A stretch of 64,000 nt of DNA, taken from assembly GCA_934130545.1 (NCBI GenBank), contig CAKOYD010000001.1, positions 138,343 through 202,342 on the forward strand, written 5' to 3'. The DNA is from an uncultured Bacilli bacterium (GTDB lineage Bacteria > Bacillota_I > Bacilli_A > RF39 > UBA660). Made by a program: the position numbers and the translations under genes. Position 1 is the first letter of the stretch; every line of letters begins with the position of its first letter. The notes below the pieces were generated by a model. The model made no database searches. It saw only the letters and a list, made by a program, of their open reading frames with translations, and was not told the origin of the DNA. Of the stretch, positions 6,095-48,272 are shown piece by piece.

Positions 6095-6096
6095 AT

Positions 6097-7131: not shown

Positions 7132-7182
7132 TTCCTAGTTATATATAGTATACCATTTATTATATAGAAAATAAATATTTTA

Positions 7183-7212
7183 CGTTAAAAAAGAATAGGC
7201 TTTTGGCCTATT
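7183..7212 (-). terminator. rho-independent terminator after the VanY-like gene
   Basis: 7-bp stem aataggc/gcctatt with loop ttttg, followed on the minus strand by a T-run (cttttttaa). Overlaps the stop codon. Confidence 0.5.
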
Positions 7213-7759
7213 TATGTGTTTCTAGATATTCTTCTAGGGTTTTACCGCTATTATATATGTCAATAGCTTGTGGTCCAATATATCTTAGATGCCATGGTTC
7301 ATAGTTATATCCGGTAATATCTTCTTTATTTTTAGGATATCTTAATATAAACCCGTATAATGGACATTTTTGATGAATAATTTGTAGTTCTTCTAAGTCT
7401 TCTAATTCATATTCGATATAGCATTTATCATCTTTATAAAGACAAAAGTCAATGGCTAGGCCTGTTTGATGCTCTGAACTTCCTGGTTTGGCAATACTTT
7501 TAAAGGCATAGTTATATCCTTTCTCTAAAACTAATTTATTATATATCTTTTCTTGATAGTTATAATCACGATACCCACTTTCTATATCAATACTAATGCC
7601 TTTACTTTGTAGATATTCTTGAAATTTAAGAAAATTATCATAAGCTACTTTAGATAACATAACATTATCTTTATATTTACTATTTGTTTTAACTAGATCG
7701 TAGGGAACATAGTTCTTATCTAGTTTTTTATTTTTGTTTACTAATAATATATTATTCAT
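7208..7759 (-). CDS. D-alanyl-D-alanine carboxypeptidase, peptidase M15B (VanY-like)
   Basis: SGYRDYNYQ and EHQTGLAIDF motifs typical of VanY/M15 zinc peptidases. Confidence 0.7.
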   Translation of the reverse strand: MNNILLVNKNKKLDKNYVPYDLVKTNSKYKDNVMLSKVAYDNFLKFQEYLQSKGISIDIESGYRDYNYQEKIYNKLVLEKGYNYAFKSIAKPGSSEHQTGLAIDFCLYKDDKCYIEYELEDLEELQIIHQKCPLYGFILRYPKNKEDITGYNYEPWHLRYIGPQAIDIYNSGKTLEEYLETHK

Positions 7760-7776
7760 ACTATATTATATGCTTA

Positions 7777-10422: not shown

Positions 10423-10450
10423 GTTTCTTGTTAAATGTGATAGTATATAG
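10423..10450. repeat. element A left att arm (ttcttgttaaatgtgatagtatatag)
   Basis: Matches the reverse complement of 12892-12917 at 20 of 26 positions, immediately abutting the core. Confidence 0.65.
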
Positions 10451-11942
10451 TTATGTTTTTGTCTTTATCAATTGTTAGATAATTAATAATACTACTTAAC
10501 ATATTTTTATTTATATCTTTTAAGTTAATAAAATTATCGATAATAGTGTCATAGTCGTACTTTTGCTTGTTAATAATATTCATTTTCTTTAATAATTTAT
10601 TTTCTTTATCCACAAGTGTGTTGATATTATTAGTTATTTCTTTAGTGTATTCTATATATTCTTGAGTGGTTATTATATTATCTAGTTTATCATAATAGAG
10701 TTGTTTCTTTTTTGATAGTAAGTTGTTTTTATCTAGTTTTATAGAATTTAGACTAGTGGTTAGTGAAGTTTTTATTTTTTTGTTAGTGCTAGTTTGTAAG
10801 ATTTCTTTTAAGTAGACTTTATTTATGTTAGATTTTAAATATTTGCTTATTTCTTTTAGGATGACTTGTTCTAATAAATTATAATTAATAGTATGAGGAG
10901 TGCATAGTTTGTACTTACTGTATTTTCGGTAGTATGCGCAACTTGTATAACTATTATTACCTATTTTAGATATTGTTATTTGGTGCTGACATTCATAGCA
11001 CTTGATAAAACCTTTGAGTAAATAGTTAGATGATTTAGATTGGAGATTTTTATTTTTAGATAAGTTATTATTTACAATATTAAATATTTGCTTGTCAATG
11101 ATTGGTAAATGAGAGTTTTGGGTAATAATCCAATTTTCTTTGGGAGTTTTTATTTCTTTTTTTATTTTATAATTTATTTTCTTTCTTATTCCTTGATATA
11201 ATGATCCTGTATATGTGGGGTTAGTTAAAATATCTTTAATGGTCTTGCTACTCCATATGCCGGTAGAGTGTCTATGTAAATTAGCATATACACTAGGAGT
11301 TGGAATGTTTTTAGAGGTTAATATATTGGCAATTTGACTCAGACCATAACCAAGATAAGCTAAATTAAATATTTGTTTTACTATTTGTGATGAATTATCA
11401 TCAATTACTAGTTTATAACGATTATTAGGATCTAGTTTATAGCCGTATACGGCTTTCCAACCTAAAAATAAGCCTTGCTCTTTTTTTGCCCGAAGACTTC
11501 TTCTTACTTTTTTGGAAGTATCTTTAGCATATTGATCATTAAAAACGGCTTTAAATGGTGCAATGTCATTACTAGTGCTGTCATAGTAGGTGTCAATATC
11601 ATCTAATATAGCGATATATCTTATATTATGCATGGGAAAATATTTTTCAAGATACTCCCCTGTTTTAATATAGTCTCTTCCTAATCTAGAATAGTCTTTT
11701 GTTATAACACAGTTAACCTTGTTTTCTTCAATATCGTTAATTAATTTTTTAAAAGATGGTCTATCAAAGTTTGTACCAGAATAACCGTCATCAATATATT
11801 CTTGATATATTTGGTAATTGATATCTAACTTTTCAAGATAATTTAGAATAATACTTCTTTGGTTAGAGATGCTTTCACTTTCTTCTTTATCTTTATTATC
11901 GCTATGAGATAGTCTGATATAGATACCTATTTTATATATCAT
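10431..11942 (-). CDS. large serine recombinase (resolvase domain + recombinase domain + zinc ribbon + coiled coil)
   Basis: N-terminal IGIYIRLSHSD...SISNQR...DDGYSGTNFDRP...YSRLGRD resolvase catalytic motifs and a C-terminal Cys cluster. Stop is 10 bp from the left junction. Confidence 0.85.
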   Translation of the reverse strand: MIYKIGIYIRLSHSDNKDKEESESISNQRSIILNYLEKLDINYQIYQEYIDDGYSGTNFDRPSFKKLINDIEENKVNCVITKDYSRLGRDYIKTGEYLEKYFPMHNIRYIAILDDIDTYYDSTSNDIAPFKAVFNDQYAKDTSKKVRRSLRAKKEQGLFLGWKAVYGYKLDPNNRYKLVIDDNSSQIVKQIFNLAYLGYGLSQIANILTSKNIPTPSVYANLHRHSTGIWSSKTIKDILTNPTYTGSLYQGIRKKINYKIKKEIKTPKENWIITQNSHLPIIDKQIFNIVNNNLSKNKNLQSKSSNYLLKGFIKCYECQHQITISKIGNNSYTSCAYYRKYSKYKLCTPHTINYNLLEQVILKEISKYLKSNINKVYLKEILQTSTNKKIKTSLTTSLNSIKLDKNNLLSKKKQLYYDKLDNIITTQEYIEYTKEITNNINTLVDKENKLLKKMNIINKQKYDYDTIIDNFINLKDINKNMLSSIINYLTIDKDKNITIYYHI

Positions 11943-13163: not shown

Positions 13164-14579
13164 CTATAGATAACTAGTATAGTTTACTTGGTAAGTTATG
13201 CTATATCTTTTAGTGGATTTACTATCGTAGCCTCTTTTAAATATAAACTCTTTTTGATATGGTTTTGGTAAATTATTTATTTTAATATCTAAGATTATTT
13301 GGTTATTGTTAGAAGATACATTAATACTATCTATTACTTTTATTAGAGTGTTTATAATAGTGCTTTCTAAAACATCATTAATATTATTAGTTATTTTGAT
13401 AGTATCTATTTCTTCGTTAGTAGACTTATAGATAGTTAGTAATTCTTTAGTTATATCTTGAGTGTTAATATTTAAGATTTTAGTAATATAACTTATGATG
13501 GTATTTAATTCATTTTCTCTAATGTTTGGATTATTACATTTATTATGAATATGACTAGAACAAACCCACGATACTGTTTTATTTTTTAGATAGATTCGAC
13601 GATAGTACGTTTTGTGGCAAGAAGAACAATATATTTTTTGACTATAGGTATATTTTTGAGGAGTATTACTACTCTTTTTTCGTAATTTGAGACGTTTATT
13701 GGCTAGATTCCATGTTTCTTCACTTACTATGGGAGGAATTTTAGTATTATCTTTATATATGTACCAAGATGATGGATCAAGATATTTTATTTTTTTAGTC
13801 ATATAGTCTGCTACTTCTTTTTTATGACCACAGTAATAACCTTTATATTTTGGATTAGTAATAATTCTTGAGATTGTAGTGGTAGTCCACTTTTTGGGGG
13901 TATTATAATCATTATTTAATATTTGGCTTATTTTTGTTAGAGATAATTTATTTTTGGTATACATTTTGAAGATATTTTGAATAACTGCAGCTTCTTCAGA
14001 AATAATTTCTAAATTCTTAGTAGTCATATTTTTCTTATAGCCATATAAGTTGTTGGCTCCTAGAACCTCTCCCCTTTTTATGGCTCTACTCATACCAAAT
14101 TTTATTCTTTCGGATAATCTTCTTACTTCATCTTGGGCAAGACTAGCCATTATTGTTAGGCGTAATTCCGAGTCATTTAATATAGTATTGATGTTATCGT
14201 TTATAAATAATACTGCCACACCATAGTTTAATAATTCTCTTGAATACTTAATACTATCAAGGGTATTTCTAGAAAATCTTGATATTTCTTTGGTTATTAT
14301 TAAGTCAAACTTATTTTTTTTGGCATCATTAATCATTTGCATAAACATTTTTCTCTTTATATCACTGACACCACTGATACCTTCATCAATATAACCAGGG
14401 ACATAAGTCCAATTAGGGTTATTCATTATATATTCAGAAAAGTGTTCATTTTGATTTTGTAATGATTTAATTTGCTCTAGGTGTTCGGTGGATACTCTAG
14501 CATAATAAGTAGCTCTTAGAGGAATATTATTTAATAATTCACCACTTGCTAATTTTTTCTTTACTTCATAGATATTCAT
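13164..14579 (-). CDS. large serine recombinase
   Basis: YARVST...QNQ...DEGISGVSD...ISRFSRN resolvase motifs, a recombinase domain and a C-terminal Cys-rich zinc ribbon. Lies at the left end of element B. Confidence 0.85.
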   Translation of the reverse strand: MNIYEVKKKLASGELLNNIPLRATYYARVSTEHLEQIKSLQNQNEHFSEYIMNNPNWTYVPGYIDEGISGVSDIKRKMFMQMINDAKKNKFDLIITKEISRFSRNTLDSIKYSRELLNYGVAVLFINDNINTILNDSELRLTIMASLAQDEVRRLSERIKFGMSRAIKRGEVLGANNLYGYKKNMTTKNLEIISEEAAVIQNIFKMYTKNKLSLTKISQILNNDYNTPKKWTTTTISRIITNPKYKGYYCGHKKEVADYMTKKIKYLDPSSWYIYKDNTKIPPIVSEETWNLANKRLKLRKKSSNTPQKYTYSQKIYCSSCHKTYYRRIYLKNKTVSWVCSSHIHNKCNNPNIRENELNTIISYITKILNINTQDITKELLTIYKSTNEEIDTIKITNNINDVLESTIINTLIKVIDSINVSSNNNQIILDIKINNLPKPYQKEFIFKRGYDSKSTKRYSITYQVNYTSYL

Positions 14580-22768: not shown

Positions 22769-24319
22769 ATTATTAATAAGTTAAAAGTAGGAATTTATTT
22801 AAGATTATCGAGTGAAGATAAAGATAAAATTAATAAAGATGACTATAGTGAATCTATTAAGAATCAAAGAAATATGCTAGTGGATTATATAAGTAAACAT
22901 GATGATTTTTATTTGGTAGATGAATATTGTGACGAAGATTTATCGGGTGCTGGAACATATAGACCAGAGTTTGAAAGATTAATTAATGATTGTGAAGGGC
23001 ATAGACTCGATATCGTTTTATGTAAAAGCCAGTCAAGATTTTCTAGAGATATGGAAATTGTTGAAAAATATATAAATAATAAATTTATCGAATGGAATAT
23101 TAGATTTATTGGCCTTGCAGATAATGCTGATACTGATAATTTTGGTAATAAGAAAGCTAGGCAAATTAATGGATTAGTTAATGAATGGTATTTAGAAGAT
23201 ATATCAAATAATATTAGAAGTGCATTTAATTCTAAAATGAAACAAGGTGAGTTTATCTCCCCTTTTGCACCTTTCGGATATGAGATTTCTTCTAATGATA
23301 ATAATAAGATTGTTATTGATAAAATTGGCTCGGAAATAGTTAAAAATATTTATAATTTGTATTTAAAGGGGTTAGGATTTACAAAAATTGCAGAGTATTT
23401 AAATAATAATAATGTCCCCTCACCTTCTTTATATAAGTATCAAAAAGGATGTAAGTTAAATATAATTAGTAATAAGAGGCGTGATGAAATCAAATGGAAT
23501 GGCAGTGCTGTTAAAAAGATATTAACTAATGAAATATATATTGGAAATTTAATACAAGGCAAAAGAACAACAGTTAGTTATAAGAATCATAGAATTATAA
23601 ATAAAAGAAAAAGTGAGTGGATAAGAAAAGAAAATACTCATGAAGGTATTATAGATAAAGATACTTTTTATAAGGTACAGTCGATTATTAATAGTCGTAG
23701 AAGGCCCTCTAAAAAATTAGGCACGATGCATATATTTTCGGGAAAAGTTTTTTGTATGGAATGTAATAGTATGATGAAAAAAAAGAATTCACAAAGACAT
23801 GAATACTTGGTATGCTCTAATAGTAATTGTCTTAATAAGTCTATACGCTATGATATGTTAGAGGGTATTATACTTAAAGAAGTTAATGGATTAGTTAGTA
23901 AATATTATGATAGTGAATTATTAAAAAAATATAGTTTAGAAGAAAGAAATATTATAGATAAAGTAAATACTTTAAATATGCAACATAATGATTTAAGAAA
24001 TAGAATTTCTAGATTAGATAATTACTTAAAGTCTCTTTATGAAGATAAGGTTAATGGTGTTATTACGGAAGAATATTTTATAAAACTTACTAATAGTTAT
24101 AATAATGATAAAAAAATTATTGAAGATAACATTAAATCTGTAGAGAGTAAGATAAGTTATTATAGAAATTATTTTAATGATAATATTATAGATAGATATA
24201 AAAGTTTTGATAATTTAAATAAGGTAATTGTTGATGAATTTGTTAATAAGATATGTGTTGGGAAGATAGCTAATAATAAAAGAAAAATTGAAGTTAGATG
24301 GCGTTTTTTATTTAATTAG
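22769..24319 (+). CDS. large serine recombinase (no canonical in-frame start upstream of the catalytic Ser; possible ATT start)
   Basis: VGIYLRLSSEDKD...IKNQR...SQSRFSRD resolvase motifs, a recombinase domain and a Cys cluster. The frame opens at 22763 after TGA. The first in-frame ATG is 22874, which lies downstream of the catalytic Ser. RBS AGAGGTGA sits 6 nt before ATT at 22769. Confidence 0.7.
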   Translation: MINKLKVGIYLRLSSEDKDKINKDDYSESIKNQRNMLVDYISKHDDFYLVDEYCDEDLSGAGTYRPEFERLINDCEGHRLDIVLCKSQSRFSRDMEIVEKYINNKFIEWNIRFIGLADNADTDNFGNKKARQINGLVNEWYLEDISNNIRSAFNSKMKQGEFISPFAPFGYEISSNDNNKIVIDKIGSEIVKNIYNLYLKGLGFTKIAEYLNNNNVPSPSLYKYQKGCKLNIISNKRRDEIKWNGSAVKKILTNEIYIGNLIQGKRTTVSYKNHRIINKRKSEWIRKENTHEGIIDKDTFYKVQSIINSRRRPSKKLGTMHIFSGKVFCMECNSMMKKKNSQRHEYLVCSNSNCLNKSIRYDMLEGIILKEVNGLVSKYYDSELLKKYSLEERNIIDKVNTLNMQHNDLRNRISRLDNYLKSLYEDKVNGVITEEYFIKLTNSYNNDKKIIEDNIKSVESKISYYRNYFNDNIIDRYKSFDNLNKVIVDEFVNKICVGKIANNKRKIEVRWRFLFN

Positions 24320-35201: not shown

Positions 35202-36095
35202 TTAACTCCATAGGTTACTTGGATATGTACCATTTTGTACTAAATCATTAATTGATTTTACTAGTTGTTCTTTATCTTCTTTATATGTTATTCCGTACCA
35301 TCTGGCAGTGGTTTTTAAAACGTCTACTTCTACCATACCTTTTTTAATTTGTTCAAAGACAATGTCTGGTATTAGGTACTCACATTTATCGATGTTATCT
35401 TTATTTTTCTCTAGGAAATCAGGAAAATGTTCTTCTAGATAATCAAATATTTTTGGTGTGAATGCAAACATATTCATTGATACTGGTGTGTCGTCATCAA
35501 TTTCAAAAGATTCTTCACCATTTAGTGGTGTTGCGATAATTTGATTACCTTTTCTTTCTACTAAACTTTCAGTAAGTTTTTCTAAGTGATTATCTTTTAT
35601 TTGACATATACCTCTTTTTACTGAGCCATTATCAGTAAGAGTGTTGCTAGCAATATATCCAACCATAGCATAGTTATCATTAGTTTTATTTTTTAAATAA
35701 GTACTTATTGTTTTATAAGCATCATAACCATAGAAATCATCTGAATTTATTATTGCAAAGTTTTCTTTAACAACATCTTTGCAACATAGTATGGCATGTG
35801 CTGTACCCCACGGTTTTACTCTAGTGTCTGGCACTTGATAGCCTTCTGGTAAGTTGTCTAGTTCTTGAAAAACATATTCTACTTTAATCTTACTTTCTAT
35901 TCTACTACCTACTGTTTCTCTAAAAATGTCATAATTTTCTTTTTTTATGATAAATACTACTTTATCAAAGCCACATTTTATGGCATCATAAATGGAATAA
36001 TCAATAATGAAATTCCCGTTATTGTCTATTGGCTCAATTTGTTTTAAGCCTCCAAATCTACTGCCCATCCCTGCTGCCATTATTACTAATGTCAT
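35202..36095 (-). CDS. sugar-phosphate nucleotidyltransferase (NTP_transferase family)
   Basis: MAAGMGSRFGG nucleotide-binding loop and KPWGTAHAI. Confidence 0.5.
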   Translation of the reverse strand: MTLVIMAAGMGSRFGGLKQIEPIDNNGNFIIDYSIYDAIKCGFDKVVFIIKKENYDIFRETVGSRIESKIKVEYVFQELDNLPEGYQVPDTRVKPWGTAHAILCCKDVVKENFAIINSDDFYGYDAYKTISTYLKNKTNDNYAMVGYIASNTLTDNGSVKRGICQIKDNHLEKLTESLVERKGNQIIATPLNGEESFEIDDDTPVSMNMFAFTPKIFDYLEEHFPDFLEKNKDNIDKCEYLIPDIVFEQIKKGMVEVDVLKTTARWYGITYKEDKEQLVKSINDLVQNGTYPSNLWS

Positions 36096-36215
36096 ATAAT
36101 TCCTCCTTTAGACTAATTAGTTAATTATATCTTAACATATTATTTTTTAATTGGCAATATTCAGAATATAACATATAAATTTAAATATTACATTATAGAT
36201 AAATTATTATATGCT

Positions 36216-37291
36216 TTATCTTAAAACTAGGATTTGGCCAACACTTAGATTATTAGTTGTTAGATTATTCAATGCTTTAATATTATCAACTGTAGTGCCA
36301 TATTTTCTAGCTATTTGGTATAAGTTATCGCCTGGTTTTACAACATAAGTGGTTTCTGGTGTTGGGATTATTAACTTAGTACCGATAGTTAATATGTCTG
36401 ATGTTAGGTTATTAGCATTTTTTATATTTTGAACAGTGGTGTTGTTTTCTTTGGCTATTGAATATAGCGTGTCGCCTGATTTTACCGTGTATAGTTGGGT
36501 TTCTTCTTCTATTTTAGATGGTATTTTCAATTCTTGATTAACAGATATAAAATTATTGGTTAAGTTGTTAGCTCGTTTTAAGTCATCAACTGTTGTGTTG
36601 AATTGTTTGGCAATGCTGTAAAGGCTATCACCTGGTCTTACTCGGTAGGTATTTGAAGTGGTTGTTCCAGTTGGTACTATTAGGATTTGGCCAATACTTA
36701 GAGTATTACTTGTAAGGTCGTTTAAAGATTTTATGTTGTCGACTGTAGTGTTAAAGTTATTGGCTATTGTATATAGAGTATCGCCTCTTTTAACTGTATA
36801 TAGTTGAGTGCCTTCTTCCATGCTTATCGATGTTGGTACTTGTAGTACTTGGCCGATGGTTAGTGTGTTATTTGTTAGGTTATTGAGTCTTTTTAGCGTA
36901 TCAACAGTTGTGTTGAATTTTTGAGCTATGGAATACAGGGTGTCACCTTTGGATACTTTGTATGTGTTTGTGGCTACTTCGTTTGGTGCAGTGTATGGAA
37001 TGCCTTTGTAGTCTAAGATGGCTTTGATGGTTGCTTCGGCTAGTTGTTGATAGTTATTTTTTAGGAATTGTAAGTCTTGTGGGTTATCTATGAAGCCGTA
37101 TTCAACGATTAACGGTTCGGTATTTCCGGTATTACGATGAATGAAATAGTAGTCTTTGCTGTTATCTGATGGTAGACGACGTTGGTAAACTTTTCGTTTG
37201 GTTTGGCCTAGGTCGCCAATGTTGTTTAGGACTTTGTTGGCTAGTGTAGAGTTGTTTCTTAGGGCGTAGATTACCTCAGCACCGGTGCCAC
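36216..37291 (-). pseudogene. N-acetylmuramoyl-L-alanine amidase (amidase_3), C-terminal part plus four LysM repeats; 5' portion separated by element D
   Basis: The minus-strand frame is open from 37304 with no start codon (GGTGAEVIYALRNN...). Four LysM repeats follow. The track ORF 36216..36821 starts at an internal Met. Confidence 0.75.
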
Positions 37292-37320
37292 CTTGTGAGT
37301 TTAGTTACCGCTAGTAAAAT
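37292..37320. repeat. element D left att arm
   Basis: See the element D entry. Confidence 0.6.
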
Positions 37321-37357
37321 TAATCGATGACTTTTATTTAGCCATCGATTAGCTATT

Positions 37358-37945
37358 TTAATTATTTGTTTGTAATTTTAAAGTTTTTACCATTCTATTT
37401 GTTAATGTTGGTTTGGCAAATTGTTCTTCTAATGTTAAAACACTGCTTTTATATCTGCTGTATGCTTTATCATAGTTTCCTTGTTCAATTTGTTCAACAC
37501 AATAATTTACTATGTTATCGTAAATATAATCATAAATAATACCAGATTTTTCTTCTTTATTAATTGTTTCAACAATTACTGGTGCTACTTCATAATAATG
37601 TTCTATATCTTCTTTTGAAACAAAATTGTCTCTAAACCATCTTAATACTGTTAATTCATAACAATTGTCATCAAATTTTTCTTGAAAATACTTCATACAA
37701 GCTGAAGTCAAATAACAACCACCAGACCCTGAACTTGTATCACTTTTATCAGGTCCATGTGTTGTAGAACTCCAAGAACCTTTATCATAGTTAATATTTA
37801 CATGAGTTGCATCATGTGGTTTATCTACTTCACCGCCATAAAAACTAATGTGATCATTACCATTTTTATCTGTGTTTACCTTTATAGTAACCCCTTTATC
37901 ATTTACATAATTTCCATACTTATCTCTATCTGCCATTATTAACAC
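37358..37945 (-). CDS. hypothetical protein (element D, att-proximal)
   Basis: ORF with GGCYLTSAC...CYELTVLRWFRDNF. No family recognised. A hairpin aatcgatgg...ccatcgatt follows its stop. Confidence 0.35.
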   Translation of the reverse strand: MLIMADRDKYGNYVNDKGVTIKVNTDKNGNDHISFYGGEVDKPHDATHVNINYDKGSWSSTTHGPDKSDTSSGSGGCYLTSACMKYFQEKFDDNCYELTVLRWFRDNFVSKEDIEHYYEVAPVIVETINKEEKSGIIYDYIYDNIVNYCVEQIEQGNYDKAYSRYKSSVLTLEEQFAKPTLTNRMVKTLKLQTNN

Positions 37946-38291
37946 CTCCCATTTTAATTTCTGACATTCTTAAAGAAATAATTGACTCTAACCACAACAA
38001 AGACCATTCAGCAAAATAAGAGCTTAAAGTTTTTGTTTCAGTATCCAAATCAATTAAATCAAATTTTATATTTTGTAATATTTCTTCATCTATAGATACC
38101 AAATTCCCTTTATTTATATATGTTGCTAAAATCGTATTAATTTCAACTAAAACTTTTTCAAAATTTTCTTTTTGCTCTTTGTATATATCTAATTGAGTTG
38201 AAGCTGTAACATAATAAATTAAATTTTTAAAAGCATAATCGATATTTTCTCTTGTTGGGTTTCCTACATTAAAAGTTTCTTCCATTAACAA
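37926..38291 (-). CDS. hypothetical protein (overlaps the start of 37358..37945)
   Basis: ORF only. Overlaps the downstream gene by 20 nt. Confidence 0.35.
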   Translation of the reverse strand: MLMEETFNVGNPTRENIDYAFKNLIYYVTASTQLDIYKEQKENFEKVLVEINTILATYINKGNLVSIDEEILQNIKFDLIDLDTETKTLSSYFAEWSLLWLESIISLRMSEIKMGGVNNGR

Positions 38292-38346
38292 TTCTCCTTT
38301 CTTGTCTTATATTATAGACTTTTTTTAAAATAAATCAACAATTTTA

Positions 38347-40011
38347 CTATTTAAATTTCATTTTCCCATTTCTCCCATAAGGATTTCTAACTAAATGCCT
38401 ATTTTCATACATAAAATTAATTTCTGGTATTACATCATATTTAAATATAATATTTATGTTTCTATTTTCATCAATTACTATCTTATCTATTAAAGTATTT
38501 ATTAGCTCTTTTTTAGGTTTTTTTAAATCTAATAGTTCTTTTATTTTCTTGGTATAATCTGGCAGTATATTTGCTTTATTCTTTATGTTTTTCTTTTTTA
38601 TTTTTTCTTCTTCAATTATATTATTAATCTTTTTTAATTTAGTTTCTGATTCAACAGATAATTCTTTATATAATTCAGTAGAAATTATATTATTACATCT
38701 ATCACTATATAAAGTAGATAATTTATTCATAATTTGTTCTTTTTCTTTTGTTAAATCTTTTATCTTTTTATCTATATCTTCTGTTTCTTTATGAACGTTT
38801 TTTTGTACTTCTTTATTTAATTCTCCTATATCTAGTTCTTTTATAAATTTTGATACTGAATTATTAAATTGCTCTAATATTTGTTCTTCTAAATAATCAT
38901 AAGGATAAAAGTGTGAACTACATCTTCCTCTTTTTGGATCTCTAGAATATCTATTACAATTAATAGACCAATAATCAAGTTTCTTTCTATAATAAACAGA
39001 TAGTCTATTGCCACACTCTTTACAAAATATTTTTCCTTCTAAAATTTTTTTGGGTCTTTCTGTTTTTAAACTATAATTTCTAGTTTTTCTTTTTCCTAAA
39101 GAATTAACATATTTAAAAGTTTCTTTATCTACTAATGGTTCATGAGTATCTTCAACTATTACCCATAAACTTTCATCTAAAGTTATTTTCTTCTTTGATT
39201 TATAATTTACTTTTGTTTGAGTATGTTGAACCATATCTCCAGTATAAATTCTATTACTTAAAATTTTCTTTACTGTTGATATATTCCAACTATCTCTATC
39301 AATCAATCTAGAAGAATAATTAGTTTTCTTATATCCTGCTGGTGTGGGTACATTCATATTATTTAATCTTGTTGCTATTTCTGTTGGTCCTATTCCTTCT
39401 GCTCTCCACTTAAATATATTTTTTACAATTGGTGCAGTTTCTGGATTAGGTATTAAATGTCCTTTATCCAAAGGATCTCTCATATAACCATAACAAGGTT
39501 GACTACCTATAAATTTACCATTCTTTCTTTTATCGTTTAATACATTTCTTATTTTTATAGAATTTTGTTTACTATAATAATCATTACAAGCAATTATAAA
39601 TGTTGAAGAATCATTACTAGCTTGATTTTTAAAACTATCATATGATTCAAGTATAGATATAAATCTTATATTATTTTCAGGAAAAAAAGTTTCAATATAA
39701 TATCCCGTCATAACATGATCTCTACCAAATCTAGATAAATCTTTAACTACTACACAATTTATCTTTTTTTGTTTTATATCCTCTAACATTTTTTGAAATC
39801 CTGGTCTATCAAAATTAGTACCAGAATATCCATCGTCTACATATTCTCCACATAGATTAAAATTATTATTTTTAACATAACTTCTTAGTAATTCTTTTTG
39901 ATTAATAACACTTTCACTATCAGATTCATATTTTTTATCTTTATCTTCTTGAGATAATCTTATATAGATTCCAACATTGAAATCTATTTCAGTTAAGTAA
40001 GTATTATACAT
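38347..40011 (-). CDS. large serine recombinase (paralog of LSR 1)
   Basis: VGIYIRLSQEDKD...VINQK...DDGYSGTNFDRPGF...LSRFGRD. Closest in motif string to LSR 1. Confidence 0.85.
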   Translation of the reverse strand: MYNTYLTEIDFNVGIYIRLSQEDKDKKYESDSESVINQKELLRSYVKNNNFNLCGEYVDDGYSGTNFDRPGFQKMLEDIKQKKINCVVVKDLSRFGRDHVMTGYYIETFFPENNIRFISILESYDSFKNQASNDSSTFIIACNDYYSKQNSIKIRNVLNDKRKNGKFIGSQPCYGYMRDPLDKGHLIPNPETAPIVKNIFKWRAEGIGPTEIATRLNNMNVPTPAGYKKTNYSSRLIDRDSWNISTVKKILSNRIYTGDMVQHTQTKVNYKSKKKITLDESLWVIVEDTHEPLVDKETFKYVNSLGKRKTRNYSLKTERPKKILEGKIFCKECGNRLSVYYRKKLDYWSINCNRYSRDPKRGRCSSHFYPYDYLEEQILEQFNNSVSKFIKELDIGELNKEVQKNVHKETEDIDKKIKDLTKEKEQIMNKLSTLYSDRCNNIISTELYKELSVESETKLKKINNIIEEEKIKKKNIKNKANILPDYTKKIKELLDLKKPKKELINTLIDKIVIDENRNINIIFKYDVIPEINFMYENRHLVRNPYGRNGKMKFK

Positions 40012-40279
40012 TCAATCCTCCAATCTTCTTACTTGACTGAGTATTAAGACAATTTAATAATACCGCATTATTAAAAAAATTACAGCGCATTATTTTCTTT
40101 TTCTATCTCTTCGATAAGATATTTTAAAATAAGATCTTTAAAAGTTATATCATTTTCATTCATAGCAACACCTACTTAAAGTTATGTTGTTTTCATTTAT
40201 TTTATTATTGTTTATATTCATTTTATATTCCCCCTTTTATTCAATAAAAAATCCCTATATTATTTTGATATAAGGACTA

Positions 40280-40486
40280 TTATTCATTTATAACTGAATC
40301 AATGTTTTTTATAATATATTCTATTAATAAAGTTTCCATTATAGATTGTATTGTAATTTTTTTATTTTCTATCACTCTTTTAAGAGCCATTTTTGTATGA
40401 TCATCAATTCTAAATTTAACTTGATTATTTTTTGCTAAAGCCATTTTTTCACTCTCCTTTCTAAAAATTGGTACTATTGTATGCAC
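40280..40486 (-). CDS. ribbon-helix-helix (CopG/Arc-like) DNA-binding protein
   Basis: KFRIDDHTKMALKRVIENKKITIQS beta-strand plus helix pattern. Real start is probably the internal Met. Confidence 0.45.
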   Translation of the reverse strand: MHTIVPIFRKESEKMALAKNNQVKFRIDDHTKMALKRVIENKKITIQSIMETLLIEYIIKNIDSVINE

Positions 40487-40625
40487 ATTAATTTTTAAAC
40501 ACTATTTTAGGAAAAGAATTTTGATAAAGCAGGATAAACCTGTTTACAAACAACTCACCAGTGGTGAGTTTTACCTTATTTTATAAGCATTTATATAATT
40601 AAGTAGTGTTTACACTTTTCATATT

Positions 40626-40686
40626 TGTTATACAATTGTATACTTTTAATTTCTTATATTATAAGGTATGTTATACAATCGTACAC
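40626..40686. promoter_or_regulatory. two copies of TGTTATACAAT(T/C)GTA(T/C)AC upstream of the RHH gene
   Basis: Copy 1 contains the perfect palindrome TATACAATTGTATA. Copies are 43 bp apart. Confidence 0.4.
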
Positions 40687-41073
40687 ATTTTTTAAAATAA
40701 CTTACTAAGATTTTTGGTACTAAAAACATAATAATATAATCAATACTTAGTACCAAAACTTTTTATATTGAATTTAAAGGGAGATTTTTGAATATGAAAA
40801 AAGCACTGACCTTCTCTATGAGGCCAATGCCGTAAATACATATAATTGCATTATTATTTCATATTCTACTATATTGTATCACATGATTGCCGAAAGTCAA
40901 TTAGTAATAAATGTTGTATTAATCTTGATAAAAATGTTGTATAAAATCTCTATAAAGCCATATAAATACTACATTTATACAAATAGATACTTTAATAGAT
41001 TATATGTTATTGACAAATATATGTAATTTTTACTTCTTAAATTTTTATCAAAATAATGTTGTTATTATAACTA

Positions 41074-41466
41074 TTATTTATAATTCCAAATACCTAATTG
41101 TCCTTTAACTTTTATTGGAGTAATGGGTTTCACATCTTCCAAAACCCATGCATATCTTCCAACTTCATAATGACCTGCAATAAAATTATTTTTGTTTTTT
41201 TCTTTCTCTTTTTTTATAAACTCTTCTGTCATATAAATACAATCAACTAAATTACACTTACATATTATATGTCCATAATTAAGTTCATCTTCATTATATA
41301 GTTCAGATAATCCTTTTCTTTCTTTTTCTTCTTTTCTTATTTTTGCAACTCCAGCTTGTATGTATAATTCTCCACGATAATTAGTTTTCCAACTTCTTGT
41401 TTCAATATATTTAACTTTATTTTTTATCAATGTAGCAAAGGGTTCTTTAATTGTTAATACTTTCAT
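41074..41466 (-). CDS. ASCH-domain protein (PUA-like fold)
   Basis: KPFATLIKNKVKYIETRSW...GHIICKCNLVDC...GRYAWVLEDVKP pattern. Confidence 0.55.
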   Translation of the reverse strand: MKVLTIKEPFATLIKNKVKYIETRSWKTNYRGELYIQAGVAKIRKEEKERKGLSELYNEDELNYGHIICKCNLVDCIYMTEEFIKKEKEKNKNNFIAGHYEVGRYAWVLEDVKPITPIKVKGQLGIWNYK

Positions 41467-41483
41467 AAACTATATTACTCATT

Positions 41484-42623
41484 TTAATCTAAAACTGCTT
41501 GTTTTAAGTCTGAAGCCAATTTATTCATAGAGTCATTTAATTTATCAATATCATGCTTTGACATAAAATATTCTTCACCATCATTACTACTTCTATCTAA
41601 AATATCAAATGTAATTCTATAAACATGATCACTTAATAAATTATTGTTTTGCCACATACAATCTTTTTTAGCTTTAATATAAAAATTATTTTTATTAATC
41701 TTTAATATATCAATATCTTCTGGTGATGAAACATAAAAACCTGTTGTTCTTACTTTTTTACTATTTTTATATGTAATACCTTCTTCATCTACCTTTTCAT
41801 ACCAGTTAGAATTAAAATAATATAATCCATTTTCATTTTTGGTACAATAATCCAACAAATTACCACGATACGCATCTTTTAAAGCATTATTAGTTTGATA
41901 TTCTTCACATGCTTTTATATATTCAATGCTAACACGTGACTCACATTTAACAGCCTTTTTCATAAAATCTTCTGCTGTCGTAACTACTAACAATTTTACA
42001 GAACCTAATGTTTTATCTGATAACTCAACTTTATGAGGTTGCGCTATATTACCTTCATCGTTTGAAATTATAAATATTTTATCATCCATATGTAAATCTA
42101 AGAAAATTTGTTTCGAAAATAACGCTTTATTTAATAGTGGTATTAAGTAATCTACTCTAAAATTTGCCTCAGCCATTACTAAGTATTTTTGATCATAACC
42201 TTGATTTCTTAATGAAATCATATATTGATTTTTTTTGAATGTCTTAACCTCTATTTGTGGTCTTTTTTCTATTGGAAACCAGTGATTATCAAACTTTAAA
42301 AATGGAATAGCTCTCTTTTTATATTTTATTCCAATAACATCTGGAGCAATCCCCGCAGTTTTAGGATTATAATCATAATAATCGGTAATAACTTCAACCT
42401 TTTCGCCTTTAAAAACTTGAGGTAAAATAATTTTATTAAATAAAACACTTTCAGGAATTATATTTATCCATCTATCAAAAATTCCACCCATATAATCTGC
42501 TTTAGATGTTAAAGCACCTTGCATAGGTCTATCACCTTGCATTTGTGTTAAATTAGCAATAAAATATACTGCCTTTTTAGCATCATTAATACTTATTTTT
42601 ACTTCATTCATACTAACCTCCAA
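41484..42623 (-). CDS. putative type II restriction endonuclease partner of the Dcm methyltransferase
   Basis: Immediately downstream of, and co-oriented with, the C5-MTase. Candidate PD...(D/E)xK (APDVIG ... IEVK). No named family recognised. Confidence 0.4.
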   Translation of the reverse strand: MEVSMNEVKISINDAKKAVYFIANLTQMQGDRPMQGALTSKADYMGGIFDRWINIIPESVLFNKIILPQVFKGEKVEVITDYYDYNPKTAGIAPDVIGIKYKKRAIPFLKFDNHWFPIEKRPQIEVKTFKKNQYMISLRNQGYDQKYLVMAEANFRVDYLIPLLNKALFSKQIFLDLHMDDKIFIISNDEGNIAQPHKVELSDKTLGSVKLLVVTTAEDFMKKAVKCESRVSIEYIKACEEYQTNNALKDAYRGNLLDYCTKNENGLYYFNSNWYEKVDEEGITYKNSKKVRTTGFYVSSPEDIDILKINKNNFYIKAKKDCMWQNNNLLSDHVYRITFDILDRSSNDGEEYFMSKHDIDKLNDSMNKLASDLKQAVLD

Positions 42624-42625
42624 AA

Positions 42626-43795
42626 TTATTCAGACATATCTGATTTTTCTAATAGTTCTAACAAGTCAGTAGCAAGCATTTGTATTACTGGAACAGAAAC
42701 TGCATTTCCTGCTTGTTTATATAGTTGAGAATCGGGATATGGCCTTCCATTTATAACCGTAGGTAATTTGTATCCATTATCAATAGGAAAGCCCTGTAAT
42801 TTAAAAGTTTCTTTTGGTGTTAACTTTCTGATACCATCATTTACTTTTATCAAAGGCACATTATGACCACCAGTACCCATATTTGCTGTAAGTGTGGGGC
42901 AAACACCACTTTGGTTTTTTCTTACATACATACCTCTTCTACATTGATAAAATTCGTACATTTCATCAATTTGTGTATTTAAATTTATTTTTTCTTTTTT
43001 ATTAGATTTTTCAAATTCTTCATCTGACATAAAATAGTTTGGATATTTTTCTTTTGTATAATAATACTTAGTTGCATTTTCTTTTGTCAAATTATAATCA
43101 ATAACCTTTTTTATATCTTTAATTCTTGATGCTTTATCTTTCTTCTTTATCCTACTTTCAATATCCTTAAATATTTCAAAATTTTTTATATCTTTTTCAT
43201 TTAATAAACCTATAATATATATTCTTTCTCTATTTTGTGGTACATTAGTATAATCCATGGTATTTAATACTTTTTCAAAAACTGTATATCCACAATCTTC
43301 TAGTTTTTGTTTTATATGTACATAAGTTTTTTTATTATCATGAGCCTGCAAATTTTTCACATTTTCAAGAAATAATACACGAGGTTTATAAAATTTTTCT
43401 CCCAGTTGTTCAATTAAATCTATAATATTTAAAAATAAATTTCCTCTATCATCTTCAAACCCTTTGCGCTCACCAGCAATACTGAATGCTTGACAAGGAA
43501 AACCACCATTCAAAATATCTATCGGTTCACTTAATATTTTATCATGTAATTTTTGATAATATTTTTGTTGTGCTTTATCTGTTGCTTGTTCTGGATGAAG
43601 TACTAATTTTATATCACCTTCTAGTAATTGATGTGAAAAATTAGTTCTATATGTCTCACATGCATATTCATCTATTTCATTTGCCCAAAGCAATTTATAT
43701 TTAGAATTTTTTGTCTTTGCATTTTTAAAACCTAAGCATATTCCACCAACACCTGCAAATAAACTTCCAACCTTATATTCAACCATATGTACCAT
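42626..43795 (-). CDS. DNA (cytosine-5)-methyltransferase
   Basis: Motif I LFAGVGG, motif IV GFPCQAFSIAG, motif VI ENV, motif X QAGNAVSVPV. Confidence 0.9.
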   Translation of the reverse strand: MVHMVEYKVGSLFAGVGGICLGFKNAKTKNSKYKLLWANEIDEYACETYRTNFSHQLLEGDIKLVLHPEQATDKAQQKYYQKLHDKILSEPIDILNGGFPCQAFSIAGERKGFEDDRGNLFLNIIDLIEQLGEKFYKPRVLFLENVKNLQAHDNKKTYVHIKQKLEDCGYTVFEKVLNTMDYTNVPQNRERIYIIGLLNEKDIKNFEIFKDIESRIKKKDKASRIKDIKKVIDYNLTKENATKYYYTKEKYPNYFMSDEEFEKSNKKEKINLNTQIDEMYEFYQCRRGMYVRKNQSGVCPTLTANMGTGGHNVPLIKVNDGIRKLTPKETFKLQGFPIDNGYKLPTVINGRPYPDSQLYKQAGNAVSVPVIQMLATDLLELLEKSDMSE

Positions 43796-43886
43796 CCTTT
43801 CTAATTTTTATGTGCTAATATAATTATAACATGAATTTCAATTATTTTATTGTATAAGTTAGCAAAACACTAGGAATATTATTTTT

Positions 43887-44807
43887 TTATAATTCTCTAG
43901 GACAATTAGGCTTATATTTAACATCATTAAATCCATATACTTTTTTACAATCATGACAGATAACTGCTATAAAATCAGCGCCATTAATTTTATGCCCATC
44001 TCCCTTTTGTATTAAAATATTTTTTGAATTACATTCAGGACAAAATATATCTTTTCTCATAACTTCATCTTGACTATAAGAATCTCTTATTATTTCATAA
44101 CCATTTCTATCATATTTAGGATAAAATTCATACTTATTAAACACTTTAATTCTTCCAAACATAAACTCTAATTTATCAATTTGTTTTTCGATATGATAAT
44201 GTCCACAATACCACTTATCATAATCAATAGACTCTTCTAGTTTATCTAAAAACTTTTCCATACTTTTATCTACATTAGATTGATCGATGCCTTTCATAAA
44301 TACTTCAGTAGGTTCATATTTTAATGGACAAGTATGTGATAAAACAATATCAATATGGTGTCCTTTATATTTATTTAAAATATTATCCATTTCTTTTTTA
44401 CTAAGTTGTTCATCTTTAAACCAAGGATATCTATATATAATTCTATAATTTTTATCAACAGAATAAGCGCCACCAATGACTAATACTTTTTTATTATCTA
44501 TATCATACAATTCACCATTTTTAGCAAATATTAAATTGGGATATGCTTCTTCAATAAATACTTTACCACCAAACATATCAATTTCTTTATATGTTGATAT
44601 ATTTTCTGGTCTTTCTTCATGATTACCTTGAACGCAAAATAATTTTATATTATAACTATTTAACTGTTCTTTTAACGTCTTATCTCTTTCATCTAAATAA
44701 TAATTAATTCCAGTATCACCTAATATAATCAACATATTATTTTTGTTTTTTTCTATATTATGCAATCTATAAAATTCTCTATGTGTATCTCCCGTTATAT
44801 AAATCAT
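43887..44807 (-). CDS. calcineurin-like metallophosphoesterase with C-terminal Cys4 zinc ribbon
   Basis: GDTHRE, LGDTGINYY, QGNHEE and CGHYH phosphoesterase motifs. C-terminal CPECN...CHDCKK. Confidence 0.6.
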   Translation of the reverse strand: MIYITGDTHREFYRLHNIEKNKNNMLIILGDTGINYYLDERDKTLKEQLNSYNIKLFCVQGNHEERPENISTYKEIDMFGGKVFIEEAYPNLIFAKNGELYDIDNKKVLVIGGAYSVDKNYRIIYRYPWFKDEQLSKKEMDNILNKYKGHHIDIVLSHTCPLKYEPTEVFMKGIDQSNVDKSMEKFLDKLEESIDYDKWYCGHYHIEKQIDKLEFMFGRIKVFNKYEFYPKYDRNGYEIIRDSYSQDEVMRKDIFCPECNSKNILIQKGDGHKINGADFIAVICHDCKKVYGFNDVKYKPNCPREL

Positions 44808-44823
44808 ATATTCCTCCTATAAA

Positions 44824-46863
44824 TTATAACTGTTCTATTACATATTTTGATAAAAAACTTATTTTAAATTTTGAAACATTTTCTTTTAATTTAATTTTTA
44901 ATTTCTCAATGTCTTCGACTTCTTCCCCAATAACATTGATTATATTTTCAATATCTTTTTCATATACTCCAAGACTTTTAAGATTTTTTCTAATTTCTGA
45001 ATTTGAAAAATATTGAACTTCAATAGGAAGTAATATTTTTTGTTCTACTAAATTTAATTGTTTTTCAGTAGCAGCACAACATTTTAAAAAGTAATAAACT
45101 ATTTTGATTTTTGAATATATTTGATGTTCTATCATACTATATTTCAATTTTATAGTATTTGATATTAATGAATCAATATTTTCTTTGTTTTTTTCTAAAA
45201 TTTTATTTATAATATATTTTATACTATATCTATTTTTATGTAATGAATAACTTATTATTTTAGAGTCTATATTCACTTTATGATTTATTGTTGTTTCACA
45301 ATATATAATTTTTAAAAGCTGACATAGTAAATTATATCTTCCTATAGTTTCGTCTTTTATCATTTTATTTATAATATCCAATAACGAACTATAATTTGCT
45401 CTAAAATAAGTATATAACTCGTTAATTGTAGAAAAACGATATTTGTATCCAATATTTTCAATATAATCTTTATAAGTTATATTTAACTCATTCAAAAAAG
45501 TTATAAAATCTTCATTATTCTCAAAATTTCCATTAATAATATCTATATCTTTACTTTCATTATCAGTTAATTCAAATTTAATTGTTTTTATTGCATCATT
45601 AAATACATATTCTTTGTCCTTTGGACCTTTTAAATAATATGCATATCCCAAAAAATGTTTATTTAACCTTCCCGTTCTACCAACCAAATTATAAAAATCA
45701 AATGCATCAAATTCTGTTTTATTACGCTGAGGTGAAGTTATGATAATGTTTTTTGAACATATATTAACACCCTCAAGTAAAGTAGAAGTACAAAGCATAT
45801 TTTTGAAATTTTCTTCTTCTTCATATAAATCTATTTGCATTAATCTTACACCTAATGGCAATTGACCATTATGAACTAAAAAACCACGTTCCATAGCTTT
45901 AATAACATACCAATCTTCATGGATTTCATCTTTTGCCCATTGAAGAAAATTTGAAATCAATTCATTTTTTAGATTAATAATTGGATATGTATTACATATT
46001 TCTCTATTAACGAAATTTGCTAATTCTTTCACCGTAGAAAAATATATCAAATTTTTTTGTGTTAATAATTTTCCTTTTAATAAATCTATTGTTTTATTAT
46101 ACTTTTCTTCTTTGCTATTTAAATTGATCTTAATAAGCTCATTTACCACCGGCGAAAAATTACTTTTATACATAATAGGTTGCTTAGATAAAATATTTCT
46201 ATCTTCTATATCTTTAATAAATGGCGCAAGTAAAACATATTTCTCCGCCTTGTCAGCTAAATATTTATAAGCCATATTCAAAACTAATACTCTATCATTT
46301 GTTTCATCGGTTTTTAGCTTATAAACCTCATCAATAACTAACAAATCTATCTTTTCTATATTATTATAAAACCTACATTCCATAACTTTATCATGTGTTA
46401 ATATAAAAATATTGTGTTTATCAAAATCATATTTTTTATTTTCATCATAGTTAATATGTGTTTTATAAACATTTAATTTTGAAGTATATTTCTTTATTAT
46501 CTTTTTTAAATATTCATCAACAAGTGCCAAAGTAGGTACAATAAGAACAATATTTTTTGGATAGAACCTAGCAATATATTCAAATATACAAAAAGTTTTT
46601 CCAAAACTAGTAGGTGCACTAATAATAACAGCGGAATTATTATTTATTATATTTATTATTTTTAATTGCTCTTTATGTAAAATTATTTCTTCATCTAAAC
46701 TAGATATTGCAAAACTATTAAACAATGCAGAGTCAAAACTAAATTCTTTTGAATACATATTTAATCCTAAATTAAATAAGTCATCTGACAATATTTGAAT
46801 GTTTTTCTTATCTTCCTCAATTTTTTTTATATATTTTTCCCTAATCTCACTGATGGTTTCCAT
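44824..46863 (-). CDS. SF2 helicase (Hachiman HamB-like candidate)
   Basis: Motif I APTSFGKTF, motif II DEVYKL, motif VI VGRTGR. Translationally coupled to the upstream 304-aa gene. Confidence 0.6.
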   Translation of the reverse strand: METISEIREKYIKKIEEDKKNIQILSDDLFNLGLNMYSKEFSFDSALFNSFAISSLDEEIILHKEQLKIINIINNNSAVIISAPTSFGKTFCIFEYIARFYPKNIVLIVPTLALVDEYLKKIIKKYTSKLNVYKTHINYDENKKYDFDKHNIFILTHDKVMECRFYNNIEKIDLLVIDEVYKLKTDETNDRVLVLNMAYKYLADKAEKYVLLAPFIKDIEDRNILSKQPIMYKSNFSPVVNELIKINLNSKEEKYNKTIDLLKGKLLTQKNLIYFSTVKELANFVNREICNTYPIINLKNELISNFLQWAKDEIHEDWYVIKAMERGFLVHNGQLPLGVRLMQIDLYEEEENFKNMLCTSTLLEGVNICSKNIIITSPQRNKTEFDAFDFYNLVGRTGRLNKHFLGYAYYLKGPKDKEYVFNDAIKTIKFELTDNESKDIDIINGNFENNEDFITFLNELNITYKDYIENIGYKYRFSTINELYTYFRANYSSLLDIINKMIKDETIGRYNLLCQLLKIIYCETTINHKVNIDSKIISYSLHKNRYSIKYIINKILEKNKENIDSLISNTIKLKYSMIEHQIYSKIKIVYYFLKCCAATEKQLNLVEQKILLPIEVQYFSNSEIRKNLKSLGVYEKDIENIINVIGEEVEDIEKLKIKLKENVSKFKISFLSKYVIEQL

Positions 46864-47761
46864 AATCGTCTATCCTTTCATAAATATATTTTAAAAATTC
46901 ACCTTTAAACTTTTCTCTATTTAAAATCGGTAGTGAAATACAGTAATATATAGTATCAAGATTAAACATTTGTTTTTTTTCAATTTTATCAAACTCTCTC
47001 AAAATTTCATCAATTTCTATTTTGCCTCCATGCATAACAAATAATGGAATCCCTATACTTTTTATATTCTCCCGATTCACAAATTCACTAAAAGTCAAAC
47101 ATTCTTCCACGCTTTCAATATAATTGTTTTCTATTATTGGCATCTTATAATTATCAATATTTGATAATACTAACATATATTCATCTTCGATTTGTTTTTC
47201 ATAACTTAAAAGAGAATTGTTTAGTGCAACTATTCCCTTATTTAAATCAGAATAGAACTTTGATTCTCCAAATAGCAACATATTATTTTGTTTATTGTAA
47301 AACAAAGTATCAATTCCAAAAACACTCATATTTGGATCAGTTATCATCGTTAATTTTGGAATAATACAGGTCATCTTAAAATATTCAAGTAATATTACAC
47401 TAAAAATATATTCTCCTATTTTTCCAATCTTATCTTTTCTAAATTTAAGTAAGGAAGTTTTATCTTTCCCAGTAATATCAATAAATTTTTCAAGTTCTCT
47501 ATAAAATTGATTTTCATCAAATAGTATATTTTCTTCATCTATAAATTTTTTTAAATTCTTATAAAGTTTAGCATAGTTTTTTTTCGTTGGTGTAAAACAA
47601 ATTGATTCTTTATTTTCTATATATTTTAATAATCTTTCTTCGTTAAAAAAATATTTAAACAACAATTCATAAAAATTGTCTTCGTTAATCTTTATATGCA
47701 CAATAGAATATTTGTTTTTTTCTTCATATACAATAAAATCATCATATTTTTTACTTATCAT
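46847..47761 (-). CDS. DUF1837-like PD-(D/E)xK protein (Hachiman HamA-like candidate)
   Basis: ~300 aa with GIDTLFY ... LLFGESKFY (a D ... ExK arrangement). Immediately upstream of and overlapping the helicase gene. Confidence 0.45.
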   Translation of the reverse strand: MISKKYDDFIVYEEKNKYSIVHIKINEDNFYELLFKYFFNEERLLKYIENKESICFTPTKKNYAKLYKNLKKFIDEENILFDENQFYRELEKFIDITGKDKTSLLKFRKDKIGKIGEYIFSVILLEYFKMTCIIPKLTMITDPNMSVFGIDTLFYNKQNNMLLFGESKFYSDLNKGIVALNNSLLSYEKQIEDEYMLVLSNIDNYKMPIIENNYIESVEECLTFSEFVNRENIKSIGIPLFVMHGGKIEIDEILREFDKIEKKQMFNLDTIYYCISLPILNREKFKGEFLKYIYERIDDYGNHQ

Positions 47762-47952
47762 ATTACTACACCTCTACTTCAAAAAAATAAACAGTATCCA
47801 TCTTAAAAAGATTAAATACTGCTTATCTTATGTAATAATTATACCATATATTTCCAAAATTTTTATATTTTTGTTAATATTTAATAGTCAAAAATGGATT
47901 TTTGTATCTTTTTTTCTACTTTTTTTAAATTTTAGTGTCCTAATACTCAATC

Positions 47953-47980
47953 ATTTATTTGTAGTGGTAACTGAACTCTG
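47953..47980. repeat. element D right att arm
   Basis: Reverse complement mirrors the left arm. Confidence 0.6.
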
Positions 47981-48272
47981 CACCTCCTGCATTTAAGTGA
48001 TTAGATATAACCACCACATTAGGATCATTACCAAATGCCTCCAGTATCTCCTTTGTTCTATTAGCAGGCGTTATTGTCTCATCACTATCTCTAGTAATAT
48101 AAACAGGAATTCCTAATTCTTTAAGTCTATTATACATATATTGAGATATTAATAAATTATAATCTTTTTCATAAGTATTTTCTCCAATAGCGCCACTATC
48201 CGAACCGCCATGTCCGGCATCAATAACCACACCGGTTAGTTTATTAGTGTTATTCATTTTATCACTCCTCAT
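47981..48272 (-). pseudogene. N-acetylmuramoyl-L-alanine amidase N-terminal fragment
   Basis: VVIDAGHGGSDSGA...ISNHLNAGG, then the element arm, then a stop. Confidence 0.75.

Follow-up and report, generated by a model that had tools for sequence, protein, structure and literature searches.

A probable type I Hachiman gene pair carried by an integrative island of an uncultured gut Bacilli bacterium

Type I-A Hachiman systems, among them those of E. coli DEC14B (Cui et al. 2025, PMC11914072) and E. coli ECOR31 (Tuck et al. 2024, PMC12278908; PDB 8VX9), are encoded by a two-gene hamA-hamB operon, in which HamA consists of the DUF1837 domain alone with a conserved D...ExK motif, and HamB is a superfamily 2 (SF2) helicase with intact Walker A and motif II sequences. 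Mutations in HamA that abolish defence have been described for ECOR31 (E138/K140; PMC12278908), for DEC14B (E150/K152; PMC11914072) and for S. thermophilus (E93, D127, E147 and K149; Tian et al. 2025, PMC13064477). In type I-B, represented by AbpAB of E. coli K-12 (PDB 8ZUE), HamA is the 531-amino-acid (aa) protein AbpA, in which an N-terminal Cap4 nuclease is joined to a catalytically inactive DUF1837 domain; type II systems, as defined in PADLOC, combine HamA2 and HamB2 with a third protein, HamC. Here, we describe a hamA-hamB pair from an uncultured Bacilli bacterium, encoded in a stretch of 64,000 nucleotides (nt) of contig CAKOYD010000001.1 (assembly GCA_934130545.1), hereafter the window, to which all positions refer. 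With a probability that we put at about 0.9, the pair is a type I Hachiman anti-phage system composed of a minimal HamA with an intact active site and a short HamB resembling AbpB.

A preliminary description of this DNA had reported open reading frames (ORFs) of 304 and 679 aa as a translationally coupled pair, naming no strand; both are present at the coordinates given there, and both lie on the minus strand (Table 1). The coupling is borne out by an overlap of 17 nt, the hamB ATG sitting inside the 3' end of hamA and being preceded by an AAGGA-like ribosome-binding site, and overlaps recur in the called genes of relatives (17 nt in L009, L012 and L015 and 11 nt in L019, where L numbers denote related loci, 26 of which were compared). 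The motifs that had been pointed out, namely D...ExK in HamA and helicase motifs I, II (DEVY) and VI in HamB, were all located and are conserved in homologues. GIDTLFY and GESKFY occupy HamA residues 149-155 and 165-170, whereas HamB carries motif I (APTSFGKT) at residues 83-90, Ia at 109-114, II at 178-181, III at 212-215, V at 359-367 and VI (GRTGR) at 395-399. Judged by sequence, the presence of these motifs in the two proteins is well beyond chance.

HamA matches the Pfam family PF08878 (HamA/DUF1837) with 50.7 bits against a gathering cutoff of 25 (E-value 2.7e-13, profile positions 34-201 of 230), and carries no Pfam domain besides it and no Cap4. Within PADLOC-DB it matches 11 HamA models and no others, HamA1 giving the best E-value (1.6e-11, better than the 2.1e-8 of HamA2), and in a collection of 5.8 billion proteins it has 330 homologues, with PF08878 found in all 120 of those listed. 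An alignment of 44 homologues (41-77% identical) shows no variation at E117, D151, E166 or K168, and these four residues correspond to the defence-essential residues of ECOR31, DEC14B and S. thermophilus HamA. An NCBIfam scan of HamA and HamB returned no matches. Searches of PDB sequences with HamA reached no HamA chain, whether the query was the single sequence or a profile built from 44 sequences, the sole match being a spurious one to Syncytin-2 (E 0.14); because these sequence searches missed the solved HamA chains, fold comparison was relied on instead. An AlphaFold2 model of HamA (predicted local distance difference test score 85.3, predicted template-modelling score 0.84) places E117 on a helix, D151 directly before strand 152-156 at its N-terminal edge, and E166 and K168 on strand 161-170, as expected for a PD-(D/E)xK core. 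When this model was compared by Foldseek with 350,542 PDB chains, 8VX9_A (ECOR31 HamA) ranked first (probability 1.00, template-modelling score 0.44-0.49), followed by the type II restriction enzyme EcoO109I and then by the second solved HamA, 8ZUE_A (probability 0.96). The HamA DUF1837 domain is thus predicted to adopt a PD-(D/E)xK nuclease fold resembling that of solved HamA, and the structure prediction that the preliminary description had proposed as a check yields a HamA as its closest fold.

HamB matches the PADLOC model HamB1 PDLC00180 with an E-value of 6.4e-94 over residues 12-668 of 679, and its top 18 PADLOC matches are all HamB models. Its Pfam matches to DEAD and ResIII lie above their cutoffs. 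Among PDB sequences the best match is 8ZUE_B, the HamB (AbpB) of E. coli K-12 (E 9.4e-34, residues 57-412), with weaker matches to Hel308 (1e-6), to the Ski2-like MTR4 and to the ECOR31 HamB 8VX9_B (5e-5). Eleven HamB sequences with identities of 34-99% all keep motifs I, Ia, II, III, V and VI. Were the pair to belong to a system other than Hachiman, one might point to the weak secondary matches of HamB, the best non-Hachiman ones in PADLOC being PDC-M23B (1.6e-17) and SngC (2.5e-5) beside Pfam ResIII, and to the type II restriction endonuclease that stands second among the HamA fold matches. The HamB profiles score at least 70 orders of magnitude better, however, and do so over the full length of the protein, while HamA matches HamA models only and a DUF1837 partner is found in every related locus; we regard such an assignment as exceedingly improbable. 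The profile search recommended in the preliminary description accordingly finds DUF1837 and HamB matches in the two proteins, and no other helicase-nuclease system scores better.

In its architecture, as far as can be read from sequence, HamA is of the majority type I-A of Cui et al., comprising DUF1837 only and with the active site present, and the locus shares with type I-A the two-gene operon and a HamB that is an SF2 helicase whose Walker A and motif II are intact. HamB differs from that of ECOR31 in its length (679 vs 1174 aa) and has none of the long N-terminal region that places Walker A or motif II of the ECOR31, DEC14B and S. thermophilus proteins around residues 270-430. The helicase core is accordingly near the N-terminus, with motif I at residue 83, compared with motif II at D431 in ECOR31 and Walker A at G272-T274 in DEC14B. 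Motif II reads DEVY here and DEGH in the type I-A comparison systems, the marginal similarity to 8VX9_B is confined to motifs V-VI, and HamA has just 12% identity to 8VX9_A in the structural alignment. The closest solved HamB is 8ZUE_B, which is of similar size (729 aa) and shares the form D-E-(V/F)-Y of motif II (DEFY there) and GRxGR of motif VI. Although HamB is closest to this type I-B protein, a type I-B assignment was rejected because HamA, unlike AbpA, is without Cap4 and keeps its D-ExK site. The pairing of a K-12-like short HamB with a Cap4-less HamA whose active site is intact is consistent with the idea, put forward by Cui et al., that Cap4 fusion and the loss of DUF1837 activity went hand in hand.

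These comparisons also bear on how distant the pair is from described systems. The preliminary description saw no sequence identity to canonical examples, which holds with respect to the long-HamB type of ECOR31 and B. cereus, from which the pair is remote, but not with respect to K-12 HamB or to the hundreds of relatives that were found. Its further, tentative suggestion of a divergent subtype is not upheld: existing PADLOC models cover both proteins, and relatives about 45% identical to HamA already carry the NCBI name "Hachiman antiphage defense system protein HamA". The pair adds one member to an already known Hachiman family and is found by standard tools.

Gene order provides a further line of evidence. 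The loci fetched through HamA or HamB comprise eight from reference genomes (37-99% identical) and nine from metagenomes, and in every HamAB-bearing locus inspected (L001-L017 and L019-L022) hamA directly precedes hamB on the same strand, the two overlapping or standing a short distance apart, an order that is kept at HamB identities from 34% to 99%. Together with PF08878, the PADLOC HamA and HamB profiles and the HamA fold, this conserved order supports the Hachiman reading with which the preliminary description began.

Downstream of hamB lies a metallophosphoesterase gene, and a three-gene variant of Hachiman could be envisaged in which this metallophosphoesterase/zinc-ribbon protein is transcribed together with hamAB and is indispensable, either as an accessory or as a second effector. 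The gap between the two genes is 16 nt, with no terminator-like site found in it, and the phosphoesterase gene has its own ribosome-binding site; the trio occurs together in the window and in L001, L009-L011 and L015-L017, phosphoesterase identity (71-92%) tracks that of HamA and HamB, and the 3' end of the phosphoesterase gene is precisely where the homology block common with L001 stops. Elsewhere, however, the genes part company. A phosphoesterase 92% identical is present in the same backbone in L023-L026, where hamAB is absent; the islands of L012-L014 have hamAB without it; it is missing from seven more distant HamAB loci (L002-L008); and in L019-L022 a DUF3800 gene separates it from hamB. 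The protein has more than 6000 homologues, far above the number in the HamA clade, and more than 120 clusters at no less than 84% identity. It has no PADLOC match to HamC or to any other defence protein, and none of the other island proteins scanned matches the HamC of type II Hachiman; nor is any third gene conserved in the distant HamAB loci. A three-gene system is, in our estimation, quite improbable, and the metallophosphoesterase was rejected as a third Hachiman gene over the 26 related loci. Rather than being a Hachiman component, it belongs to the conserved backbone of the island family described below.

With both proteins assigned to their families and their catalytic motifs intact, the mode of action of the type I Hachiman pair may be sketched by homology with the Hachiman systems on which Tuck et al. 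(2024; PMC12278908), Cui et al. (2025; PMC11914072) and Tian et al. (2025; PMC13064477) carried out experiments. HamA and HamB would form a heterodimer, and HamB would keep the nuclease inactive for as long as the DNA is intact. Phage infection would yield damaged or nicked DNA or 3' single-stranded ends, on which HamB would load; the loaded helicase would then hydrolyse ATP, ratchet and change conformation, thereby activating or releasing HamA. HamA would then degrade phage and host DNA indiscriminately, resulting in abortive infection. The details of activation are the least certain step for a short HamB, because the model was built on a much longer one.

The pair resides on an integrative island of 10,692 bp (Table 1) that splits a gene for a cell-wall amidase with an Amidase_3 domain and five LysM repeats. 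An Amidase_3 fragment of 105 aa ends in ...NHLNAGG at 47984, and from 37291 the gene continues with GTGAEVIY... and then the five LysM repeats. When the flanks are rejoined, an in-frame amidase of 454 aa results that covers Amidase_3 positions 1-173 of 174 with 108.7 bits, compared with 66.6 bits for the fragment alone. The predicted attB junction joins AATGCAGGAG to GTGGCACCGGTGCT and the predicted attP junction joins AACTCACAAG to GTGCAGAGTTC; the reconstructed attP has dyad symmetry round the crossover, of the form GGTAACTaAACTC-N10-GAGTTcAGTTACC. Dyad symmetry is expected of the attachment sites of large serine recombinases. GC content is 0.21-0.29 in the island windows at 38001-48000 and 0.32 in the windows at 36001-38000 just beyond attL, and the island end nearest attL falls within a 0.32 window. 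An exact 28-mer search of JGI metagenome contigs for an empty attB gave no matches, a point that the contiguous Amidase_3 profile match across the rejoined junction already covers.

Table 1. Coordinates, in the window, of the hamA-hamB pair and of the other features of the island
Feature	Position	Strand	Description
Integrative island	37292-47983	minus	10,692 bp; attR core GG 47984/47983, attL core GG 37292/37291
Leader upstream of hamA	47762-47983	minus	island-internal, between attR and the hamA start; read from sequence
hamA	46847-47761	minus	304 aa; DUF1837-only PD-(D/E)xK nuclease; residues E117, D151, E166-x-K168
hamB	44824-46863	minus	679 aa; SF2 (Ski2/Hel308-like) helicase
Metallophosphoesterase	43887-44807	minus	calcineurin-like, C-terminal CxxC...CxxC zinc ribbon; Pfam Metallophos 8e-12; PHROG 1649 4.5e-30
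C5 cytosine methyltransferase	42626-43795	minus	start/stop abuts the 379-aa gene
379-aa protein	41484-42623	minus	no match in Pfam, PADLOC, NCBIfam or PHROGs
ASCH-domain protein	41074-41466	minus	follows the 379-aa gene
Terminator-like hairpin	40802-40831	minus	just upstream of the RelB/RHH-like gene
RelB/RHH-like protein	40280-40486	minus	68 aa; upstream of the recombinase; 85-91% conserved in sister islands
Large serine recombinase	38347-40011	minus	554 aa; Pfam Resolvase + Recombinase + Zn_ribbon_recom; PHROG 95 integrase 1e-104
121-aa ORF	37926-38291	minus	20-nt overlap with the 195-aa ORF
195-aa ORF	37358-37945	minus	between the recombinase and attL, as is the 121-aa ORF

Along the minus strand the island genes run in the order hamA, hamB, phosphoesterase, C5 methyltransferase, 379-aa protein, ASCH-domain protein, RelB/RHH-like protein, recombinase and two small ORFs. 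The hamA leader holds an extended -10-like sequence, TGGTATAAT, at 47846-47838 together with an AGAGGTG ribosome-binding site, and TGGTATAAT is a candidate for the hamA promoter; in this AT-rich DNA, a consensus promoter scan found sites no more often than in shuffled sequence. The genes for the methyltransferase, the 379-aa protein and the ASCH-domain protein form a trio that is 96-98% conserved in L023-L026, and the 379-aa protein probably represents an undescribed family of restriction endonucleases and partners the methyltransferase. At the position of this trio, other islands have Bpu10I-like, AlwI or HNH modules. The RelB/RHH-like protein may act in regulation or as a recombination directionality factor. 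The 121- and 195-aa ORFs have no Pfam or PADLOC family, their sole signal being a sub-threshold match to CFI-box-CTERM (27 bits, cutoff 40), and by its position in a variable slot this ORF pair is a candidate defence cassette.

Family scans of the island genes found no capsid, packaging, replication or conjugation gene, the 379-, 121- and 195-aa proteins being without family assignment. Among IMG/VR viral contigs HamB had no match and the phosphoesterase one distant partial match, so that there is no evidence from this source that the island is a phage. Because its excision would precisely restore the amidase gene, the element might resemble skin or SPbeta in being a regulated intervening element, and a skin-like excision of this kind is conceivable. 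Sporulation genes are present in some host contexts (SpoVT and YabP in L026).

The same island backbone is widespread in gut metagenomes, and always lies at the same point of amidase orthologues. The target amidases are 47-71% identical as proteins (about 65% at the DNA level in L001) and the recombinases 83-96%, reaching 96% in the sister islands L019-L026, whereas hamAB is up to 99-100% identical in L001. Set into this backbone is a cargo that varies from island to island. By attR are found the Hachiman pair of the window, a second Hachiman lineage with a DUF3800 gene, or an AbiLi/AriA-like ATPase (PADLOC AbiLi, 9e-42) with DUF3892; four different restriction-modification modules occur in mid-island, where the variable module is of type II; and on the attL side, a second variable cargo site, L019-L022 have a retron-type reverse transcriptase-protease (type XI, 6.5e-153) and other sister islands have different unassigned ORFs. 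The second Hachiman, at 4889-8938 of the L019-L022 locus, occupies the same slot as that of the window and comprises a HamA of 281 aa (28% identical) and a HamB of 679 aa (34%). It is followed by the DUF3800 protein, which is 381 aa in length, has no PADLOC match and could be an accessory gene of this Hachiman lineage.

Carriage on a mobile element raises the question of whether hamAB might be a decayed or non-defensive relic, or might serve the island itself, for example in maintenance or addiction; expression of Hachiman is mildly toxic in E. coli (PMC12278908), and such toxicity could stabilise the element. Against this, both ORFs are intact, the catalytic and ATPase motifs are invariant in relatives down to 34-41% identity, and a hamAB copy in another host is 98-99% identical. 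Sister islands, moreover, fill the hamAB slot with other bona fide defence systems, which by association argues for a defence role of this slot. We consider a relic or an island-serving function very improbable.

Variable defence cargo at fixed positions characterises the defence hotspots of satellites, prophages and integrative and conjugative elements. The islands resemble such hotspots in that neither the integrase backbone nor the integration site changes, while defined slots exchange their defence cassettes; the element described here differs in its small size of about 10.7 kb, in its use of a large serine recombinase, and in its target, which is the coding sequence of a cell-wall hydrolase with Amidase_3 and LysM domains. 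A broader reading would join two propositions: that the pair represents an experimentally unstudied Hachiman clade, in which a short AbpB-like HamB with neither N-terminal extension nor OB fold accompanies a minimal, catalytically intact HamA, and that it is at the same time only one among several defence cassettes that replace one another in a family of serine-recombinase islands of about 10-11 kb not described before, which target the conserved Amidase_3-LysM coding sequence in human-gut Bacillota and have two defence hotspots, one by attR and one by attL. Taken jointly, these propositions are possible but rather doubtful.

Other mobile elements were seen in and beside the region. Three further large serine recombinases with the Resolvase, Recombinase and Zn_ribbon_recom domains are encoded in the window at 10431-11942 (minus), 13164-14579 (minus) and 22874-24319 (plus), within a stretch of positive GC skew at about 10-27 kb that is interrupted at about 19-21 kb and is the sole such stretch in the first half of the window; recombinases and skew suggest one or more additional integrated elements. 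In L009-L011 a second element (about 1847-8457 in L009) lies directly upstream of the N-terminal amidase fragment. It encodes a Mob_Pre relaxase, its large serine recombinase is a different one (32% identical), and it may have entered next to the same amidase gene as a tandem or nested insertion.

Returning to the type I Hachiman reading, the pair is recognisable with PADLOC and Pfam, its host is an uncultured low-GC gut bacterium, and it adds little for Hachiman itself. It does offer a compact system, of 983 aa in total, for asking whether the damage-sensing model developed for the long HamB of ECOR31 holds for short HamBs. The island family, in turn, constitutes a clean natural example of modular exchange of defence cassettes at fixed slots, and genes in these slots that have no assigned family, such as the two ORFs at 37358-38291, can by virtue of their position be counted as candidates for new defence genes.

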